From positions 8,348 to 72,347 of the forward strand of contig JANYED010000167.1 of NCBI GenBank assembly GCA_025363315.1: a DNA stretch of 64,000 nucleotides, read 5' to 3'. The position numbers and the translations under genes are program-made. The DNA is from Polaromonas sp. Lineage in GTDB: Bacteria; Pseudomonadota; Gammaproteobacteria; Burkholderiales; Burkholderiaceae_C. Position 1 is the stretch's first letter. Every line of letters begins with the position of its first letter. This document shows positions 31,939 to 40,424 of this stretch, piece after piece. The notes beneath the pieces were generated by a model. The model was given only the letters and a program-made list of their open reading frames with translations, searched no databases and was not told the origin of the DNA.

Positions 31939-34311
31939 TTATTTTAATGTTCCTGTCGACGCGGTTTTAACACCCGCACCGCGTACTTCAATTTTTACTT
32001 CGTCCAGCACCTTGCCGTTGCTGTCGATCAGTTGCACCACATGCCGTCCTGGCCAGGGCAGCCACTGTGCCTGCGCGCCGCGTGCAACAACTTTGCCCTC
32101 CATCCGCCAGCGCAGGTTACGCCCCTCGGCCTTGAAGCTGACGCGTTGGGCTTTGGACGGAATGTCTGGGTCCAGCGCAATAACCGTACCGGCTGTGGGG
32201 GCGATGATCTTGGGTTCGATTTCAGCTGAAAAAGTACTTTTTAATAGGTCTTTTGAGTCTGTAGCCCAATCAACACGGGCGCGAGCAGCTCCTGAATCAG
32301 TAGCAAACAGATTTTGTTCAGTACCTTTGATGAACCACTCAGTGCGCGCTGCCTCCAGCCCATCAAACGCCACGCGGCTTTGCATCAGCCCGGGCGGTGG
32401 CGTGGGCGCGCGGCTGGGTTGGGTGCGGTGCAGGTGATTCATCACCGCCGCCCAGATCGGCGCTGCTCCGCTTGTGCCGCTCACGTCCCACATGGGTGCG
32501 CCGCTGGCGTTGCCTACCCACACGCCTACTGTGTAGCGCTGCGAATAGCCGACGGCCCAGTTGTCGCGCATGTCTTTGCTGGTGCCGGTTTTAACGGCAG
32601 TCCAAAAGCGGGTGGCCAGCACACTGTCAGTGCCAAAGGTGCGGGCACGCGCCAGTGGGTCGGCCAGGATGTCGCTGACGATAAATGCCGCGCGTGGGTC
32701 GATGGCGGATTCGGGTACAGCCCTCACCCCCGCCCACTCCCGTGCACGGGAGTGGGGGCCAATCGGGGAAGTCTGGCTCCCTTTCACGTACGCGGGAGTG
32801 GGCAGGGGTGAGGGTGAAGCGAATTTAACTTCCCCAACCTGCCCCCCATTGGCCAGCGTCCGATAAGCATTCGTCAAATTCAGCAGAGACACTTCAGAAC
32901 TGCCCAATGCCAGGCTATAGCCGTAATAGTCGCCGCTCTCTTTAAGCGGCAGTCCTGCGCCCTTGAGCTGCCTGGCAAACGCATCAGGCGACAACATGAC
33001 CAGCGTGCGCACCGCTGGCACATTCAGCGACGCCCCCAGCGCGGTGCGGGTGCTGACCATGCCCTTGAACTGACGGTCATAGTTTTGCGGAATGTACAGG
33101 CCGCTGGCAGTGGGGATTTGCGTGGACGAGTCTTCCAGCAATGATGCGGCAGTGATGCGCTGCTCAGCAATGGCCTGAGCGTACAAAAAGGGCTTGAGAG
33201 TTGAGCCCGGTTGGCGCAGCGCCGTCACGCCATCAACGTCAGCGGCTTTGCTGAGTTCATTGGACGAGCCAACCCAGGCCAGTACTTCGCCCGTGCCGTT
33301 GTCGAGCACCAGCACAGCACCGTCCTCCACATGGCGGCCGCGTAGCTCCCGTAGCTGCTGCTGCAAGGTTTGGACGGCGAAGCGTTGGAGTGGGGCACGC
33401 AGGGTGGACTGGATTGATTTTGCGGAGCCCTCACCCCGCAAGGGGCGAGGAAGGAATTCAGGAACGCCACTCTTGCCCCCTCTCCCGCTGACGGGAGAGG
33501 GTCGAGGTGAGGGGGCCTGCAAAGCCACCAGCCGCTGTGCCAAGTGCGGCGCAAACCCCTCGCTAGCATCAAACGCCTTGTGCTGCAAAGCACCCGATAC
33601 AAATAAGTCCAGCGCGTCGCAGTCGGCTCTGGATTGCAAAAGTTTTAAAACGCCACAAGACCGCTGGCTGACCTGCGCCGCCTTCGCATTTGGCCCCCGC
33701 ACCAGTGCCGCAGCCACCGCCGCCTCACGCTCATCCAGCCCATGCGCCGCCTTGCCAAACAGCGTGCGACTCAACGCGTCAACCCCCACCAACTCACCCC
33801 TGAATGGCACCAGATTCAAGTACGCTTCCAGAATCTGGTCCTTGCGCCAGCGTGCTTCAAGGACTTGGGTTGACACGGTTTGGCCGATTTTTTGACCCAC
33901 GCTTCGGCCATTGGCACCTGCACGCAAATCATCGTCCAGCAGGCCAGCCAGTTGCATGCTGATGGTCGATGCACCGCGTGTTTTGGTGTTCCACAAGTTG
34001 GCCCATGCAGCGCTTGACACCGCCCGCCAGTCCACGCCGCTGTGTTCATAAAAGCGTTTGTCTTCGGACAACACCAGCGCCGTGCGCAGGGCAGGCGACA
34101 CGTCAGCCAACGCCACCCACTGGCCGCGCCGCACGGTGCTGTCAGTGCGCAGGCGCTGAATGACTTCCCCGTCCCGTGCCAAAATCAGCGTGTCAGACGG
34201 CTTGTAGTCCTGTTTGACACTGTCAAATGATGCTGTAGCCCAACAAATACGGGCGCAGCTAGCTATTAAATAAATAGCGATACATCCGGCCCTGACAGCA
34301 TTAAGCGTCAC
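31939..34311 (-). CDS. pbpC: Penicillin-binding protein 1C
   Basis: EDKRFYEH, GASTISMQLA, SxxK (STLK), SLN and KTG motifs; 4-bp overlap with the A2M gene; contains four in-frame repeat-derived segments. Confidence 0.93.
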   Translation of the reverse strand: MTLNAVRAGCIAIYLIASCARICWATASFDSVKQDYKPSDTLILARDGEVIQRLRTDSTVRRGQWVALADVSPALRTALVLSEDKRFYEHSGVDWRAVSSAAWANLWNTKTRGASTISMQLAGLLDDDLRAGANGRSVGQKIGQTVSTQVLEARWRKDQILEAYLNLVPFRGELVGVDALSRTLFGKAAHGLDEREAAVAAALVRGPNAKAAQVSQRSCGVLKLLQSRADCDALDLFVSGALQHKAFDASEGFAPHLAQRLVALQAPSPRPSPVSGRGGKSGVPEFLPRPLRGEGSAKSIQSTLRAPLQRFAVQTLQQQLRELRGRHVEDGAVLVLDNGTGEVLAWVGSSNELSKAADVDGVTALRQPGSTLKPFLYAQAIAEQRITAASLLEDSSTQIPTASGLYIPQNYDRQFKGMVSTRTALGASLNVPAVRTLVMLSPDAFARQLKGAGLPLKESGDYYGYSLALGSSEVSLLNLTNAYRTLANGGQVGEVKFASPSPLPTPAYVKGSQTSPIGPHSRAREWAGVRAVPESAIDPRAAFIVSDILADPLARARTFGTDSVLATRFWTAVKTGTSKDMRDNWAVGYSQRYTVGVWVGNASGAPMWDVSGTSGAAPIWAAVMNHLHRTQPSRAPTPPPGLMQSRVAFDGLEAARTEWFIKGTEQNLFATDSGAARARVDWATDSKDLLKSTFSAEIEPKIIAPTAGTVIALDPDIPSKAQRVSFKAEGRNLRWRMEGKVVARGAQAQWLPWPGRHVVQLIDSNGKVLDEVKIEVRGAGVKTASTGTLK
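32251..32304 (-). repeat. 54-bp motif, copy 7 (inside pbpC, encodes ATDSGAARARVDWATDSK)
   Basis: Reverse complement: gctac tgattca ggagc tgct cgcgc ccg tgttgat tgggct acagactcaaaa. Confidence 0.92.
32721..32814. repeat. GC-rich REP-like inverted doublet inside pbpC
   Basis: Arms ccctcacccccgcccactcccg (32721-32742) and cgggagtgggcaggggtgaggg (32793-32814), 21/22 complementary; internal hairpin CCCACTCCCGTGCACGGGAGTGGG. Confidence 0.88.
33427..33516. repeat. Second GC-rich REP-like inverted doublet inside pbpC
   Basis: Outer arms CCCTCACC / GGTGAGGG; internal hairpins CCTCACCCC-GCAA-GGGGCGAGG and CCCTCTCCCG-CTGA-CGGGAGAGGG. Confidence 0.85.
34225..34278 (-). repeat. 54-bp motif, copy 8 (inside the pbpC N-terminal anchor, AIYLIASCARICWATASF)
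   Basis: Reverse complement: gctat ttattta atagc tagc tgcgc ccg tatttgt tgggct acagcatcattt. Confidence 0.88.
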
Positions 34312-37300
34312 TTCACACCCCCCACCTTTACCCGCGCATTCGGTGCTTCGCCAAACATTTCGGGCGCGTACATCGCCTCTACGCGGCTTGGCGGCAGTGC
34401 AAAGTCGCCAACGTTGTTCAGGCGCATGGTGTATTGCATCTTGACAACGCCTTTAGGCAGGTACTCGTAATAGCTGCGAAAGGCTTCAAAGCTGCGCTCT
34501 TCAAAAGCTGGCCAGCCGGAGCCTGATTTCTTTTCCCCCTTGGTGGCTATTTCTGAATCACGACCCAGGCCGCTGCCCAAAATGGTTGCGCCGCCGGGAA
34601 TGGGGTCGGTAATCGCTACCCAGGTCATGTCGGCTGATGCATTGACCTCCAGCGTGATACGAACCACGTCGCCACGCGTGTAGATGCCCTTCACAGCTTG
34701 CTCTACCGGGTCCATCGTTTTCTTGATCTGGTAGCCCGCATTGAAGGGTTCTTTGAGCTGCACGGCGGCCAGCGATTGCAGTGTTAGCCACGGTCTGCCT
34801 GTGCCAGTGTGCGTCACGTTCAAGCTGTCTTTAGCCGCTGAAGCCGCTTTGGCCCACGTTAAAAACATCGTGTTGTTGCGCAGATTGCCAGGGGATGCAG
34901 GTGCGCCGAACATGGTGGTTTGGTTGGGTGCGCCGCCCGCATCTGTGGTCTTTACCCGGTCGACCTTGGCCCAGTCGACTTGAGCAGCCGCAGCGGTCAG
35001 CGCGGCCTTGGTTACGCCCGCAACCGGCGTGGCTTCAAACCTGGCAGAGAACTTGTCCAGAGCCAAGCCGCCCCACAAATTGGCGGTTGTCGTCAGCCAC
35101 GCACCTTTTTGCTGGCGGCCAATAAAGCCGTTGGCAAGGCGCCCGATGTCGTCTTTCCACGCCGCGTCGTCCATCACGGCCAGCATCAGGCGCGCGGTGT
35201 TGACGTCGCCATTGACCATCAGCCACCACCAGTAGTCGTCTTTTTCAGTGCTGAAAATCAGTTTGGTGCCCTGGTACGAAAGGCGTGATTTCAAAACCTG
35301 ATTCGCTTCGGCAATACGTTCCTCACGCTTCGGAACATCGCTCACACGCTTCAAAATGCTCAGCCAGTCAATCACCGCATTCGTCGGCCACTGGTTGGGC
35401 GCAATCGTGATGCTGCCGAGCATGCGGCCCTGTGCTTTACCGTAACGGGCAAGCGCTTCAAGTGCGGCGAGTTTGCGCACGTCCAGGTCTTTGCGTGGGC
35501 TCCAAAATTCGCGTTGAATACGGCCTTCAACAAACGCGATCAAGCCGCGCTCCATGGGTGCACGCACATCGTCTGGCAAAGCAAATGCGGGGTTGATGCT
35601 GGCCGCTTCGTGCGTGGCGGCCAGCAGATAAGCGGTCAGTGCATCGCTGCCGCGCGCAGCATCGCCATCACGCGGCGGAAAGTAATTGGCCAGGCCGTCA
35701 CTGTCCAGATAACCCGGGATTTGCCCAACTACCGACTGCCACAGTTTGCCGTCACGCAGGCCGACTGATTTGCTGGTTTTTTGTTCCAGGCAGGCAAACG
35801 GGTAGTTGGCAAACCAGTCACGCACGCCGTCCATACCATCAGCCAGTTTGGGTTGCAGCGACATCTTCAAACCGCCCCGACCTGGCAAGGCATCAGCAGG
35901 CGGGTTCACGTCGAGACTGAACGAACCGTCGACCTGAATCAGCGTGGCTTGCTGCACCGTGAGTGGCACAGCCGGGATGATGCGCTGGCGGGCTTTCAGG
36001 CCATCGCGCACCCCGCTTATCGTGTCTTTGGCTTCAATCTCCCAAAGAATCGCCTCTTGCCGCGTAAAGCCCAGTTGCCCGGGCGCTGTCACCGTCCATG
36101 CCACTTCACGCGCTTCACCTGCAGGAATATCAACAGTCTGCGGCTTCAATTCAAGCAGCGTCGCGCGCGGCGCCACCTCCACTTTCATCGCCGCCTTGGT
36201 CGTGTTACGCAGTGTGATTTGTGCGCGGAACTGATCGTCCTCTCGCACCAGCGGCGGCAAGCCGCTGATGATTTGCAAGTCTTGCGTGGCTTTGATGGAC
36301 GTTTGCCCAGTGCCGAACAAGCCTGTAGCCGCATCAGCCACCGCCACAATTTTGAATGTCGTCAGCGCATCATTGAGCGGCACAGTCACTACTGCCTGGC
36401 CATTCGCATCCAGTTGCACGCGGGGGTTCCACAGCAGCAGGGTGTCGAGCAGCTCGCGCGTGTTGCTTCGGCCACCGCCGCCGCCCGCTGCCACCGCTTT
36501 GCGGCCATAGTGCCTGCGGCCAATGATTTCCATTTGCGCGGTCGAGGTTTCAACGCCCCAGGCGCGGCGTTGCAGCATCGCGTCGAGCAATCCCCAGCTG
36601 CTGTTTGGCATCAGCTCCAGCAGGGCTTGGTCAACCGCAGCCAGTGCCACCTCTGCGTTGGCAGCAGGCTGGCCGCTGGGCAGCTTGACCTGAATCGTCA
36701 CTTTGGCTTGGCTGCGCACGGCGTAGCTTTCTTTGTCGGGCTTCACGCTCACGTCTAACTGATGCGCTTTGGTACCGACGCGGATTTCAGCAAGCCCCAG
36801 CCTGAAGGCAGGCTTGCTCAAATCAACCAGTGCAGTCGGCGCAACGTATTCGCGGCCTTCGTACCAAAAAGATGTCCACCACTCTTTAGGCGCTTTAAAC
36901 CCCCAGGTAAAAAAGCTGTACCAAGGCACTTCACGCAGGCGGCCACGCAGCGCCAGCACACTGACGTACACGTTCGGCCCCCAGCCTTCCTTGATTTTCA
37001 AGCTGATGGTCGGGTCTTGCCCATTGAGCTGCACGACTTGCGTGTCAATGATGCCTTCACGCTCAACCGCCACCAGCGCCGTTGCAAACCTGAAAGGCAT
37101 GCGTACCTGAAACTTGGCCACATCACCGGGTTGGTAGCTTTTTTTCTCGGGCAGCACGTCCATGCGGTCATGGTTTTCACCGCCAAACCACAGCTCGCCC
37201 TGCTTGGTCACGTACACCGAGCTGGCCGCCTGGATGGTGTTGCCATCTTTATCTTTGGCCGTCACGATGAGTTCGACTTCGCCTGCCTCGCCCAGTTTGG

Positions 37301-40292
37301 TTTCACACAGCAGCAGCCCGCGTGCATCGCTTTTGCCGCTGCACACACTGCCTAAATCCTTGATTTCAGTCTTGTTGTCGTAGGTGTAAAAGCCGCCCAC
37401 CATGCGCTTGCGGCTGGTGGTGACAATACGCGCCACGGCCTGCACTGTCAGTGCAATATCTGTAGCAGCGAGCCCCTTTAAATCAAGTGCTAGCGCCTGA
37501 AACTTGATTTTCTGGCTGCTCGACACCCAGCCCTCCGTTTTGATGCCCGCCACTACGCCTGAAGGCCACAACGTGCTCAAGCTTCGAATCGTTTGCACCT
37601 CGCCATTCGGGTCGGCATAGGTGGCTTCCAGCAGCAGCTCTTGCGGTTGTTTGGCAGTAGGTACATCAGAAATGGTGACTTTACCTGCACCGTTTTTGTT
37701 CAGCGTTAACGGCAACTTGTCAGCTATAACGCGCTGGTCTTGTGATGCCGTGGTTTCCTCTTCGCCTTGTGCATTGCCGGTTTGCTTGCCGCGCGGCGGG
37801 CTAAAGCTGAACTCTTCGTAGTCGCTATAGCTTAAATACTTGCCGCGCACCAGGGCTGACACACGCACGGGCAAGTTCACCGCGCCGCCGCCCGCTACAT
37901 AGTTGATTTGCACGTCGGCGGGTACGGACTTGACATTGACCAGCGCCTTTTTGTTGGTGGGCGTAACGCGCCCTTCAAGCACCGGCAAGCGAAACTCTTC
38001 CACTCTGAATTGGCCCGTGCTGATGTTGCCGTTGCTGCTATCGCTATCGCTGTCGCTGTCGTTATTTTTTTGCCTGTCGAGGTAGACCTGATAGATGCCA
38101 AGTTTGGCAGCGGGCGGTATGGCAAATGTGTTCTCGGCGCTTTGGCCACCCGTTGCGGTTTTGCGCCAATTGAGGGCTTGTTTGTACTGCTGTCCGCTAC
38201 CCACGTGGGTGACGATCAGCGTTTCGGGTAACACGCTGGCCAGGCCAAAACCTTTGCTGGTCTCGGTGCGCAAAATATGCTTCATCGACACGGTTTCGCC
38301 CGCTTTGAACAGCGTGCGGTCAAAAATGGTGTGGGCACGTTCGTCGGGCACGGGTTCGCGGCTGGTCGGCACGTTAAAACGCCACGGCTCGATGCCTTTG
38401 TGCCAATTGCTCCAGGTGAAGGCCAAATCATCTGCAGCCCGAGCGCTTATGAAATAAGCGCCATTGGTTTCTGACTCGCCGTCTGAATCACTGCCTGAAC
38501 TATTTCTGTAGCACTGCCCGGGGTCGGGCGACAAGCCGGTGAAGTTGGCAATACCTTGCGCGTTGGTAGTGGCCTTGGCAAGCTGCTTGCCGTTGCAGTC
38601 AGACACCGCCACTTGGGCGTTGGCAACCACCGTACCTTTGTCCAATGTGGTCACCCAGGCCATTGCGTTTTCTCGCCCCAGCTTGAAGTGCACCGCGAGG
38701 TTGGTGACCAGTGCGGATGTACGAACGTACATTGTCCTGGACGCGCCGTAGCGCTCGTCGAGCAACGAGCCTCCTAGTTTTTGCGACGCAATTTCCACCA
38801 CGTGAAAGCCAGGTGAAAGTGGAATACCCACCACCTCAAATGGACGTGGATCCGCGGCGACGGGTTTGGGTAAATCTAAGGTGGTAACTCCCGGCTGACT
38901 TTGCAACAGCGAGACGGTGCGCGATTGAACAGTGTCTTTGTCTCGCTTTTCGAGTACCTTCGGCAATACGCCTTTGACATCACGAATGGCCATGCGGCGC
39001 GGCACTTCATAGCTGTCGTAGCGCTGCACTTTGCGAAACCACGCAATGATTTCTGCATCCGTCTTGGGTTGTAGCCCGTTGACTTTTCCTGGGGTCAGGC
39101 CCTTGATCGGCAAGGCCGCTTCAACGTTGCGCAGCGTCACGGGCAGCAGCGCCATGTAACCAGGCTCGCCGTTATTTTCCGCGTACCGCTCCACAATGCC
39201 AAACGGTGCGGCCGCAAATTTTGCCAGCGGCGGCATCGCGCCGGTGGCTACCCTCAAAGGAAAGCTGTCAGCATTGTTCAGCGGCCGGCCTGATGCGTCT
39301 TTGAAGTCTTTGGGCAGCTCCAGCACATAGGGCGTGGATTCACTGAACAGCGGCTTGAAGGTGATGCTGTTCACCACGTCCGCTGCATCGCCTTCATTTT
39401 CAAACGTCGGCTTAAGCTTGTCTTTGCCGCCCGTCAAACGAATCGCCTCGGCCAGCTTGCGCGGCACCGGTGCGTTGAAGTTCAGGCTCATCGGCCGGAT
39501 GGGCAGACAGGCCGACTGGGCGTTTTCACGCTCGCAGTTGAAGCTGGCAGCAAACGGCTCGCGCACCTTGAAGTTGTAGCGCTTTTCAATGCTGTTGGGT
39601 ATACCGCTTGGCGTGCTGACACCTTTGCCGTAGACCAGTTGCATTTTGCTGGCGGGCGTGAGGCGGCGATTGCAGGTGAGGGCGGCAAACTTCAATGGCT
39701 CGGCGGCTGCGGCTTTGTCCAGCCCCTGCGACTTTAAAAGCGCATCACGCTCTTTGCCCTCAATCAGCTTGACGGGCACTCGCTCGCCCAGGCCCTCAAC
39801 GCTGCACCACACATTGTCTTGAATGCTTTTGAGCGTCGCCGCGCCATTGAGCTGAAGTAAAAAATACTGTTCTTCATCAATCCGCTCGCCACCAGAGGGT
39901 TGCAGGCTTTGAATAAACGGCCCGCTAGTATTGAATTTATAGCTACTTGCGCCCGTCAACAGGGCGCCAGAGGGCGATTTAAGCCCAGCACGCATCTGCA
40001 CATTGCAGTTCACACCCGGCGGTAAGTCGTTTTCAAACTCGAACGCCCATTCGCGGTCGCTGATCCAGCGGCCACTGCCTTTGCTGGCTTGTGCATCGCT
40101 GCAACTTAGCGTCAAAGGCGCAGGCGCTTTGGGGTCGCCAAAATTGACGGCGCTGTCGTCAAACTTGGCCACCACCTGGCGTATGCGCGCCACCTCGCCT
40201 TGCGGACTGAGGCTGGTGATTTGCAGCGCCTGCGTGGGAAGTGCTGCGGCCGCCATACCGGCGGCGATGAGTCTCAAAGTGATGGATAGCAA
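34308..40292 (-). CDS. Bacterial alpha-2-macroglobulin (YfhM-like)
   Basis: About 1990 aa; thioester motif YPFACLEQ; paired with pbpC. GAGGAG RBS 6 nt before TTG at 40292 suggests this start rather than 40340. Confidence 0.92.
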   Translation of the reverse strand: MLSITLRLIAAGMAAAALPTQALQITSLSPQGEVARIRQVVAKFDDSAVNFGDPKAPAPLTLSCSDAQASKGSGRWISDREWAFEFENDLPPGVNCNVQMRAGLKSPSGALLTGASSYKFNTSGPFIQSLQPSGGERIDEEQYFLLQLNGAATLKSIQDNVWCSVEGLGERVPVKLIEGKERDALLKSQGLDKAAAAEPLKFAALTCNRRLTPASKMQLVYGKGVSTPSGIPNSIEKRYNFKVREPFAASFNCERENAQSACLPIRPMSLNFNAPVPRKLAEAIRLTGGKDKLKPTFENEGDAADVVNSITFKPLFSESTPYVLELPKDFKDASGRPLNNADSFPLRVATGAMPPLAKFAAAPFGIVERYAENNGEPGYMALLPVTLRNVEAALPIKGLTPGKVNGLQPKTDAEIIAWFRKVQRYDSYEVPRRMAIRDVKGVLPKVLEKRDKDTVQSRTVSLLQSQPGVTTLDLPKPVAADPRPFEVVGIPLSPGFHVVEIASQKLGGSLLDERYGASRTMYVRTSALVTNLAVHFKLGRENAMAWVTTLDKGTVVANAQVAVSDCNGKQLAKATTNAQGIANFTGLSPDPGQCYRNSSGSDSDGESETNGAYFISARAADDLAFTWSNWHKGIEPWRFNVPTSREPVPDERAHTIFDRTLFKAGETVSMKHILRTETSKGFGLASVLPETLIVTHVGSGQQYKQALNWRKTATGGQSAENTFAIPPAAKLGIYQVYLDRQKNNDSDSDSDSSNGNISTGQFRVEEFRLPVLEGRVTPTNKKALVNVKSVPADVQINYVAGGGAVNLPVRVSALVRGKYLSYSDYEEFSFSPPRGKQTGNAQGEEETTASQDQRVIADKLPLTLNKNGAGKVTISDVPTAKQPQELLLEATYADPNGEVQTIRSLSTLWPSGVVAGIKTEGWVSSSQKIKFQALALDLKGLAATDIALTVQAVARIVTTSRKRMVGGFYTYDNKTEIKDLGSVCSGKSDARGLLLCETKLGEAGEVELIVTAKDKDGNTIQAASSVYVTKQGELWFGGENHDRMDVLPEKKSYQPGDVAKFQVRMPFRFATALVAVEREGIIDTQVVQLNGQDPTISLKIKEGWGPNVYVSVLALRGRLREVPWYSFFTWGFKAPKEWWTSFWYEGREYVAPTALVDLSKPAFRLGLAEIRVGTKAHQLDVSVKPDKESYAVRSQAKVTIQVKLPSGQPAANAEVALAAVDQALLELMPNSSWGLLDAMLQRRAWGVETSTAQMEIIGRRHYGRKAVAAGGGGGRSNTRELLDTLLLWNPRVQLDANGQAVVTVPLNDALTTFKIVAVADAATGLFGTGQTSIKATQDLQIISGLPPLVREDDQFRAQITLRNTTKAAMKVEVAPRATLLELKPQTVDIPAGEAREVAWTVTAPGQLGFTRQEAILWEIEAKDTISGVRDGLKARQRIIPAVPLTVQQATLIQVDGSFSLDVNPPADALPGRGGLKMSLQPKLADGMDGVRDWFANYPFACLEQKTSKSVGLRDGKLWQSVVGQIPGYLDSDGLANYFPPRDGDAARGSDALTAYLLAATHEAASINPAFALPDDVRAPMERGLIAFVEGRIQREFWSPRKDLDVRKLAALEALARYGKAQGRMLGSITIAPNQWPTNAVIDWLSILKRVSDVPKREERIAEANQVLKSRLSYQGTKLIFSTEKDDYWWWLMVNGDVNTARLMLAVMDDAAWKDDIGRLANGFIGRQQKGAWLTTTANLWGGLALDKFSARFEATPVAGVTKAALTAAAAQVDWAKVDRVKTTDAGGAPNQTTMFGAPASPGNLRNNTMFLTWAKAASAAKDSLNVTHTGTGRPWLTLQSLAAVQLKEPFNAGYQIKKTMDPVEQAVKGIYTRGDVVRITLEVNASADMTWVAITDPIPGGATILGSGLGRDSEIATKGEKKSGSGWPAFEERSFEAFRSYYEYLPKGVVKMQYTMRLNNVGDFALPPSRVEAMYAPEMFGEAPNARVKVGGVK
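39927..39980 (+). repeat. 54-bp motif, copy 9 (antisense inside A2M, KSPSGALLTGASSYKFNT)
   Basis: agtat tgaattt atagc tact tgcgc ccg tcaacag ggcgcc agagggcgattt. Confidence 0.82.
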
Positions 40293-40424
40293 GGTGGGCT
40301 CCTCAAAATTTGTCTTTTTTGACTCTCGAGAGTAGCTCAATTGAAAGCACTTTCGGTTACATCGCCTTGCAACAGGTTGCGACTTTTGCCCATGACAATC
40401 GGGCTTTGATTCAGAAGCTCCGGA

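Follow-up and report, generated by a model that had tools for sequence, protein, structure and literature searches.

Four in-frame segments derived from two short repeat families in a Polaromonas pbpC gene

How can a gene for a bifunctional cell-wall synthase take up repeat DNA at four separate places and still encode an apparently intact enzyme? This question is raised by pbpC, the gene for penicillin-binding protein 1C, which occupies positions 31939-34311 on the minus strand of a 64,000-nt stretch of Polaromonas sp. DNA (the window, meaning the whole stretch analyzed). The window is contig C101 of a metagenome-assembled genome (label G000; 386 contigs, 3.57 Mb, 95% complete). An earlier sequence-only reading had called the gene a "repeat sink", with four in-frame segments from two unrelated families, an open frame and untouched catalytic motifs. 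We confirm that observation, frame and motifs included. Profile matches identify two of the segments as GC-rich inverted doublets of the BoxC type and the other two as copies of a motif of about 65 bp, which is AT-richer and, by its sequence, unrelated to BoxC. The explanation we favor, with a probability of roughly 0.8, is that pbpC is a working gene with four tolerant sites, filled by two different DNA-level processes.

Judged by its sequence, pbpC should encode a working class A penicillin-binding protein (PBP). A single intact frame of 790 aa, opening with GTG, carries the Pfam domains Transgly (aa 48-223), Transpeptidase (331-602) and BiPBP_C (696-774), the architecture that defines PbpC, and scores 588.8 bits against the TIGR02073 PBP_1c equivalog, above the cut-off of 494.2. 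The catalytic motifs of both domains are present (E83-D84 of EDxxFxxHxG, S370xxK373, S428xN430 and K574TG576), and these residues are invariant or nearly so in two alignments, one of orthologs and one of diverse PbpCs. The nearest database relatives of the protein are all from Polaromonas, and a Foldseek search with its structural model returned E. coli PBP1b (5hlb; E 1.9e-30) as well as S. aureus PBP2 structures. Within this framework, four places appear to tolerate foreign sequence: the signal anchor, the linker between the transglycosylase and transpeptidase domains, a surface loop of the transpeptidase, and the linker between the transpeptidase and the C-terminal domain.

The second and third of these places hold the GC-rich doublets, each of about 90 bp and inverted, as first described. 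Site 1 (33428-33515, no strand assigned) lies in the transglycosylase-transpeptidase linker and encodes APSPRPSPVSGRGGKSGVPEFLPRPLRGEGS, about 30 extra residues; site 2 (32721-32814, likewise without strand) lies in the transpeptidase domain, in a surface loop that follows the ANGG helix, and encodes PSPLPTPAYVKGSQTSPIGPHSRAREWAGVRA, about 28 extra residues. The peptides and their placement are those originally noted, APSPRPSPVSGRGG...PLRGEG at about aa 266-296 and PSPLPTP...REWAGVR at about aa 499-530. Site 1 contains a hairpin at 33478-33501 (CCCTCTCCCGCTGACGGGAGAGGG). Site 2 consists of two 41-nt arms (32721-32761 and 32774-32814) that are 83% complementary, and it includes a perfect 24-nt palindrome at 32733-32756. 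Folding as RNA yields -76 kcal/mol (z -8.7) for one doublet and -56 kcal/mol (z -3.6) for the other. Rfam gave no match at the pbpC repeats.

Alignment of 120 Polaromonas PbpCs (686 to 855 aa) shows that both doublets are additions. The closest element-free ortholog (P0012, fetched as L033; 86% nucleotide identity) has 9 and 16 residues at sites 1 and 2, versus 39 and 44 in the PbpC of the window, and the site 2 stretch in orthologs without the doublet amounts to 42 nt. Among 80 diverse PbpC representatives (about 35-56% identity), the medians are 9 and 17 residues. The anticipated indels of about 30 aa are thus present at both GC-rich sites, and the counter-case, orthologs that lack the repeats and are equally long, was not seen. 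In an AlphaFold2 model built from the diverse representatives (predicted local distance difference test score, pLDDT, 88.8; predicted template modeling score, pTM, 0.82), the pLDDT falls below about 65 internally at residues 271-300, 501-530 and 671-700 only, the stretches that correspond to the three internal repeat segments; an alignment of close homologs alone gave a pLDDT of 47, and that model was not used. Both doublet segments are modeled as low-confidence coil (pLDDT 49-66 for residues 271-300 and 45-56 for residues 501-530) within an otherwise confident structure, in keeping with the surface loops that had been expected. We conclude from the model that these Pro/Ser/Gly-rich segments are predicted to be disordered loops.

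A literature search with two 9-mers of the doublets led to the repeat known as BoxC, PIT or, in E. coli, TMECO, an "intrastrand triplex motif" (TM; PMC4666352). The unit of this family has three blocks: CCCTCTCCC (pyrimidine), a loop, GGGAGAGGG (purine), a linker, and GGGTGAGGG (second purine). Copies in E. coli read CCCTCTCCC-TGT-GGGAGAGGG-CCG-GGGTGAGGG (Holder et al. 2015, PMC4666352), and the doublet units match the TMECO sequences in Table 1 of that paper block for block. Site 1 reads CCCTCTCCC-GCTGAC-GGGAGAGGG-TCGA-GGTGAGGG over 33478-33513, and site 2 reads CCCACTCCC-GTGCAC-GGGAGTGGG from 32733, with CCCTCACCCC in its flanks. Three blocks, a loop of 3-6 nt and a linker of 3-4 nt are common to the pbpC doublets and the published family, as is tandem inverted pairing, which E. 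coli shows at five paired TMECO sites (PMC4666352). With a BoxC element profile, nhmmer scored sites 1 and 2 at 65 and 86.5 bits. On these sequence grounds we assign both doublets to BoxC.

The repeat segments also appear to mutate faster than the remainder of pbpC. In a comparison with a relative that is 99.3% identical (L090), the four repeat segments, 13% of the gene, hold 11 of the 16 nucleotide differences (binomial p 4e-7). Ten of these 11 are non-synonymous and one is synonymous; outside the segments, four are synonymous and one is non-synonymous. Site 2 alone accounts for 6 of the 16, including a compensatory pair by which the base-pairing partners are CCCACTCCC...GGGAGTGGG in the window versus CCCTCTCCC...GGGAGAGGG in the relative. 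Hairpin-templated mutation in quasi-palindromes would be expected to leave such compensatory pairs.

Occupancy of the two sites changes often within the genus. Among the 120 orthologs, site 1 holds BoxC in 50, is empty in 36, holds a second palindromic repeat in 21, and is unclear in 13; for site 2 the corresponding numbers are 24, 71, 14 and 11. The arms of this second repeat are GTTCGCCCTGAGCCTGTCGAAGGG / CCTTCGACAAGCTCAGCCCGAAC, and its peptide is VRPEPVEG...ASTSSART. On a maximum-likelihood tree of these orthologs, inferred with sites 1 and 2 masked, the observed states require at least 33 changes for site 1 and 24 for site 2 (47 and 35 with shuffled labels). Sister taxa differ in state, as in the window pair versus P0012/13 (support 97) and in P0066, with BoxC, versus P0104, with the second family (support 97). 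Two distinct BoxC junctions are found at site 1, the BoxC elements vary in spacer length and unit structure among orthologs, and the sites are also filled in other genera of the same family. The term "repeat sink" is therefore apt, since either of two repeat families fills these sites in many lineages, sister genera among them.

Two smaller observations concern the fate of such inserts. At site 2 of P0027, P0040 and P0032, the BoxC-derived loop has been enlarged by tandem repetition (SRLREISPS three to four times, LSLSLSLS), so that inserts can also act as minisatellites in coding sequence. In another genome (locus L028, G034:C4), the site 1 segment measures 37 nt, a length not divisible by 3, and two open frames of 396 and 513 aa take the place of one; it is possible that this pbpC was frameshifted at the place where repeats sit in other genomes.

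How did BoxC come to be in this gene? A profile search of the whole source genome recovered four full and two half copies, all six within long open reading frames: pbpC (twice), thrC, ligA, guaA and a radical-SAM gene. The identities of pbpC, thrC, ligA and guaA are confirmed by NCBIfam equivalogs, and the equivalog matches break at the inserts. Of 61 Polaromonas genomes, 34 have no core hairpin and the richest has 98 (control count about 0). In one BoxC-rich relative (G008), doublets between genes are numerous and some copies lie inside genes. A small nuclease gene tracks this distribution. DUF559 (PF04480, E < 1e-20) has hits in 11 of the 27 genomes with hairpins, and all 34 genomes without hairpins lack it (hypergeometric p 3e-5). 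At all five loci read, the gene (about 315 nt) has a BoxC unit within about 10-20 nt of each end, with the third BoxC block facing the gene. The suggested scan of the genome for such elements and a linked nuclease or transposase had this outcome: six copies exist, and DUF559 is bracketed by BoxC in relatives; a profile search of the source genome found no DUF559, and RAYT transposase genes are unlinked (see below). In BoxC-rich Polaromonas, DUF559, which is Vsr-like, is likely to be the mobilizing or maintaining partner of BoxC. The six copies in the source genome are best read as relics of a family no longer active there, since DUF559 is absent and only six copies persist, all in housekeeping genes. 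Intergenic copies can be deleted freely and in-frame ones only by precise deletion, which would account for the survival of intragenic copies only. At two of the relatives' loci (L093 in G047 and L094 in G033), DUF559 is followed directly by a full left-unit, spacer (about 33 nt) and right-unit doublet, laid out as in the pbpC inserts, and the spacer begins GGCAAGA, as at pbpC site 1.

The other two segments of pbpC belong to the motif of about 65 bp. One copy (32241-32306) encodes FATDSGAARARVDWATDSKDLLK in the linker between the transpeptidase and the C-terminal domain (nhmmer E 1.8e-17, 64.3 bits); the other (34220-34280) encodes AIYLIASCARICWATASF in the N-terminal membrane anchor or signal helix (E 7e-10, 39.9 bits). 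Both lie on the plus strand in profile orientation, so pbpC reads them antisense, and both are read in the identical frame (AIYLIASCARICWATAS and ATDSGAARARVDWATD). These are the two 54-bp copies initially reported. The N-terminal one is indeed the anchor; the C-terminal one was misplaced, as it sits in the linker ahead of BiPBP_C, whose Pfam match starts at aa 696, and not within that domain. The motif is abundant. In the source genome, about 175 copies are found by BLAST and 702 by a profile built from the genome's own copies, 13 of them in the window. Of the 702, 165 (about one fifth to one quarter) fall within open frames 250 aa or longer that continue for 60 aa or more to either side of the motif; they are read mainly in two frames, AIxSGAARARIxWAT (open in the consensus) and AQxIRARAAPExIA.

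The two copies differ in what they did to the protein. The linker is 35 aa long in the window PbpC and about 35 in Polaromonas and sister genera, versus a median of 15 in diverse PbpCs, so the linker copy started out as an insertion of about 60 nt (about 20 aa). The insertion is old and common to Polaromonas and other Comamonadaceae genera; it is modeled at pLDDT 53-59. The anchor copy, modeled as part of a helix at residues 2-26, is kept in most Polaromonas orthologs, and the remainder have an unrelated anchor of equal length, which points to replacement with no gain in length. The proposal that the repeats add new peptide loops is thus borne out for both BoxC doublets, fails for the anchor copy, and for the linker copy describes an event long past.

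We also find evidence of concerted evolution in the motif copies of pbpC. Other Comamonadaceae genera have a related sequence at the linker position, in each case their own genome's variant of the motif. The linker DNA of one such genus (g8) has 15-45 copies in genomes of g8 and its allies, and G000 yields none; the G000 linker DNA has at least 40 copies in G000 and elsewhere short partial matches only. Within Polaromonas there are several variants of the motif center, and the N- and C-terminal pbpC copies of one genome share a variant (within- versus between-genome identity, permutation p <= 4e-4, with the caveat that the genomes are related). A comparison of G000 with another genome, G019, illustrates the point. 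The G019 consensus from 27 other copies reads ...AATAGCTGCTCAGGCAATAAATACCTGGGCTAGCGGCC..., with the core ..CTCAGGCAATAAATACCTGGGCTAGCGGCC.., versus ...CAGGAGCTGCTCGCGCCCGTATTTATTGGGCTACAGGC... and ..CTCGCGCCCGTATTTATTGGGCTACAGGC.. in G000; correspondingly, both G019 pbpC copies carry CAGGCAA and both G000 copies GCGCCCG. The stem has changed with compensation (GCCC/GGGC in G000 versus CAGG/CCTG in G019), and the hairpin loop is inverted between these two species of one genus (AATAAATA versus TATTTATT), with flanks that keep their orientation. An orthologous, gene-internal copy that matches its own genome's variant is not explained by simple vertical descent and needs overwriting; short-patch gene conversion from other motif copies, the simplest mechanism, is the probable one. 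A near-identical motif copy 7 kb from pbpC in G056 was considered as a case of recent copying and rejected, as it belongs to a partial duplicate of the pbpC 3′ end. This duplicate (L091, G056:C1:3343300-3345400, at about 1030-1230) lies downstream of the intact pbpC, beside a TnpB-like open reading frame, and contains the linker motif and ...EIELEVRGAGV. A literature search with core sequences of the motif found nothing.

The following sequence of events would fit these results, and in this sense the interpretation offered by the sequence-only reading is supported. BoxC doublets would have landed in frame, with no stop in the frame used, and would be read as Pro/Ser/Gly-rich disordered loops. 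Such loops, gained and lost rapidly between relatives, are probably neutral passengers that mutate fast, perhaps partly through hairpin-templated changes. In the source genome the DUF559 partner may since have been lost, leaving only the copies locked inside genes. The linker copy of the 65-bp motif would be an old insertion and the anchor copy a replacement of an equally long anchor, both then kept in step with the genome's current variant, probably by short-patch gene conversion; for segments kept in step in this way, the shaping force would be DNA-level drive and not selection on the protein. A fuller version of this account, which we put forward tentatively and at somewhat less than even odds, holds that two DNA-level drives, and not protein selection, write parts of housekeeping proteins in this clade. 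One would be the motif, which homogenizes itself, flipped loop included, so that orthologous protein segments follow a non-coding repeat. The other would be BoxC, as the non-autonomous form of a minimal DUF559-nuclease cassette that repeatedly targets, or is tolerated only at, the same few loops and whose survivors, after loss of the nuclease, are those locked in genes.

Several points weigh against this account. The numbers of changes at sites 1 and 2 were taken from a quickly built tree, 35 of whose 116 branches lack support, and they would be inflated by recombination. No clean target-site duplication is seen at either BoxC site and the flanks of filled and empty alleles differ, so insertion is indistinguishable from allele replacement by recombination. 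The number of motif copies spanned by open frames is an upper bound on intragenic copies, as it was obtained without gene calls and includes some shadow frames. Across the genus, the motif copies show no elevated identity at third codon positions (5th-13th percentile); homogenization, if any, would then act within lineages, which fits lineage-specific rewriting rather than a shared constraint. The link between DUF559 and BoxC is, on the sequence evidence, best described as an association. Finally, the source assembly is fragmented and incomplete, and missing data could in part explain why neither DUF559 nor intergenic BoxC copies are seen.

It is also possible, if on balance unlikely, that insertions were few, with each site hit just once or twice in the distant past, and were followed by much recombination of pbpC segments among Polaromonas lineages and occasional deletion, with no repeated new insertions. 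Most BoxC-filled site 1 alleles share the junctions VA[LM][HQ]|APSP ... GEGS|A[NK]SI (empty alleles read VAQTKGQSI), filled site 2 alleles share an FGEVKF flank that empty ones lack, and fewer state changes are needed than with shuffled labels (33 versus 47 and 24 versus 35). Such common junctions, along with the lack of target duplications, suggest that exchange of alleles by recombination does explain part of the mosaic. That it explains the whole is hard to reconcile with the occupation of each site by two unrelated repeat families, with a second site 1 BoxC junction (VAQTRG|VPPP...) that lies within "empty" allele sequence, with filled sites in sister genera, and with the differences among elements in spacer length and unit structure.

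Could the loops instead be adaptive, retained for an altered PbpC function such as membrane spacing or partner binding? The linker copy is kept at the same place in several genera, and the anchor copy supplies a predicted hydrophobic helix. We nevertheless consider this improbable. Near-identical relatives differ in whether they have the BoxC loops, these loops are modeled as disordered, the substitution pattern is 10 non-synonymous and 1 synonymous in the repeat segments versus 1 and 4 elsewhere in the gene, and the same elements occur in unrelated enzymes, namely thrC, ligA and guaA. In ligA (contig C163, ..AAQTIRARAAPELVA..) and guaA (C262, ..AQLIRAQAATKNG..), one BoxC-derived segment is accompanied by one derived from the 65-bp motif. 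With both families present in these two genes, pbpC is not alone and would be the extreme case of a genome-wide habit.

More improbable still is that pbpC is decaying and gathers repeats under relaxed selection in this lineage. The gene is dispensable in E. coli and missing from 9 of 32 good-quality Polaromonas genomes, and the G034 copy appears frameshifted at site 1. In the window, however, all 790 codons are open, the catalytic motifs are complete, every domain is modeled confidently, and the changes outside the repeats against the nearest relative are mostly synonymous (4 versus 1). The start codon is, moreover, coupled to the gene directly upstream, which encodes a yfhM-like alpha-2-macroglobulin of 2010 aa (34308-40340, minus strand) and whose stop codon overlaps the pbpC GTG by 4 nt. 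A bacterial alpha-2-macroglobulin gene is the usual operon partner of pbpC, and the pair in the window is arranged accordingly. A weak match to the 65-bp motif (E 1e-3) lies inside this neighbor as well, at 39929-39984, and is read as GLKSPSGALLTGASSYKFNT.

That the GC-rich segments are native low-complexity Pro/Gly-rich linkers, repeat-like by composition only, is refuted by the data: many secreted and membrane enzymes do have Pro/Ser/Gly-rich linkers, but here the DNA is an inverted repeat with a perfect 24-nt palindrome that folds far better than its shuffles, it agrees with the three-block BoxC consensus at every base, and the element recurs in four other genes and between genes in relatives, while close orthologs lack it.

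If the favored reading of a working gene with tolerant sites is correct, these inserts amount to a tolerance map, indicating where a bifunctional cell-wall synthase accepts 20-30 extra residues, which would be useful for tagging or engineering class A PBPs. For the motif, pbpC offers a clear case of concerted evolution that reaches coding sequence. There is also a caution here for annotators and phylogeneticists, as the repeat segments are not ordinary protein sequence. BoxC itself has been an orphan family since the 1990s, described as intergenic, and it is found here inside the frames of essential enzymes. It is thus a known family in an undescribed setting: read in frame, found again and again at fixed loops, and, within a genus, linked to DUF559. 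Turnover at fixed sites, together with the tracking of DUF559 within one genus, makes the spread of BoxC directly testable.

This setting can be compared with the published survey, which counted 3610 BoxC/TM copies in 262 proteobacterial genomes, with a patchy distribution, unstable flanks and no transposase association (PMC4666352). The Polaromonas copies are likewise patchy among close relatives, in unusually rearranged loci and with no transposase nearby. All 23 copies in E. coli K-12 are intergenic (PMC4666352), whereas all six in the source genome lie within housekeeping-gene frames, two of them in one gene; and the Polaromonas units bracket a DUF559 nuclease gene, a link absent from that paper.

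Other repeat systems resemble the pbpC inserts in part. The Rickettsia palindromic elements (RPE; PMC3733652), invoked as an analogy when the segments were first noticed, are also palindromic repeats of about 100 bp that lie in frame, leave their host genes functional and add surface peptides. The analogy is sound for this mode of action, an in-frame palindromic insert, and not for family membership: the host clade is unrelated and the sequence family apparently so, and the pbpC sites are used in turn by two or three families. The betaproteobacterial repeat element (BRE; Hot et al. 2011, PMC3110155) is a GC-rich repeat of about 90 bp reported in Polaromonas, with some copies in coding sequences; it was rejected as a name for the GC-rich element because its sequence differs (..GCCCCCTCGGGGGGCAGCAAGCCCGC..), and it matches neither pbpC repeat family. 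DNA uptake sequences (DUS/USS) recall the 65-bp motif alone, having hundreds of copies, many of them intragenic in permissive frames, and species-specific variants that the copies within genes follow. The motif is too large to be one, at 54-65 nt versus about 9-12 nt, and it is a hairpin with a co-varying stem and a loop inverted between species.

The REP/REPIN-RAYT system, including intragenic REPs (Di Nocera et al. 2013, PMC3733652), shares with the pbpC doublets short GC-rich hairpins, often as inverted doublets, some within open reading frames; an inverted doublet of a hairpin repeat is also what defines a REPIN. A RAYT link was rejected for both pbpC repeat families, as other repeats (GGGGTCAGATTCC.. 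and GGGGTCAGGTC..), and neither BoxC nor the 65-bp motif, flank the RAYT-like genes of the source genome. No BoxC hairpin occurs within about 1.5 kb of these two genes or of seven such genes in six BoxC-rich genomes, one of which has a single isolated arm-type 9-mer. The two genes encode Y1 transposases (C257:412-1206, L001, and C186:4526-5434, L002; NCBIfam REP_Tyr_transpos, 82 and 78.5 bits), and each is flanked by a repeat of its own, of the AATTGGGGTCAGATTCCAATT type and the GGGGTCAGGTCTG type, so that this genome contains no fewer than four short repeat families.

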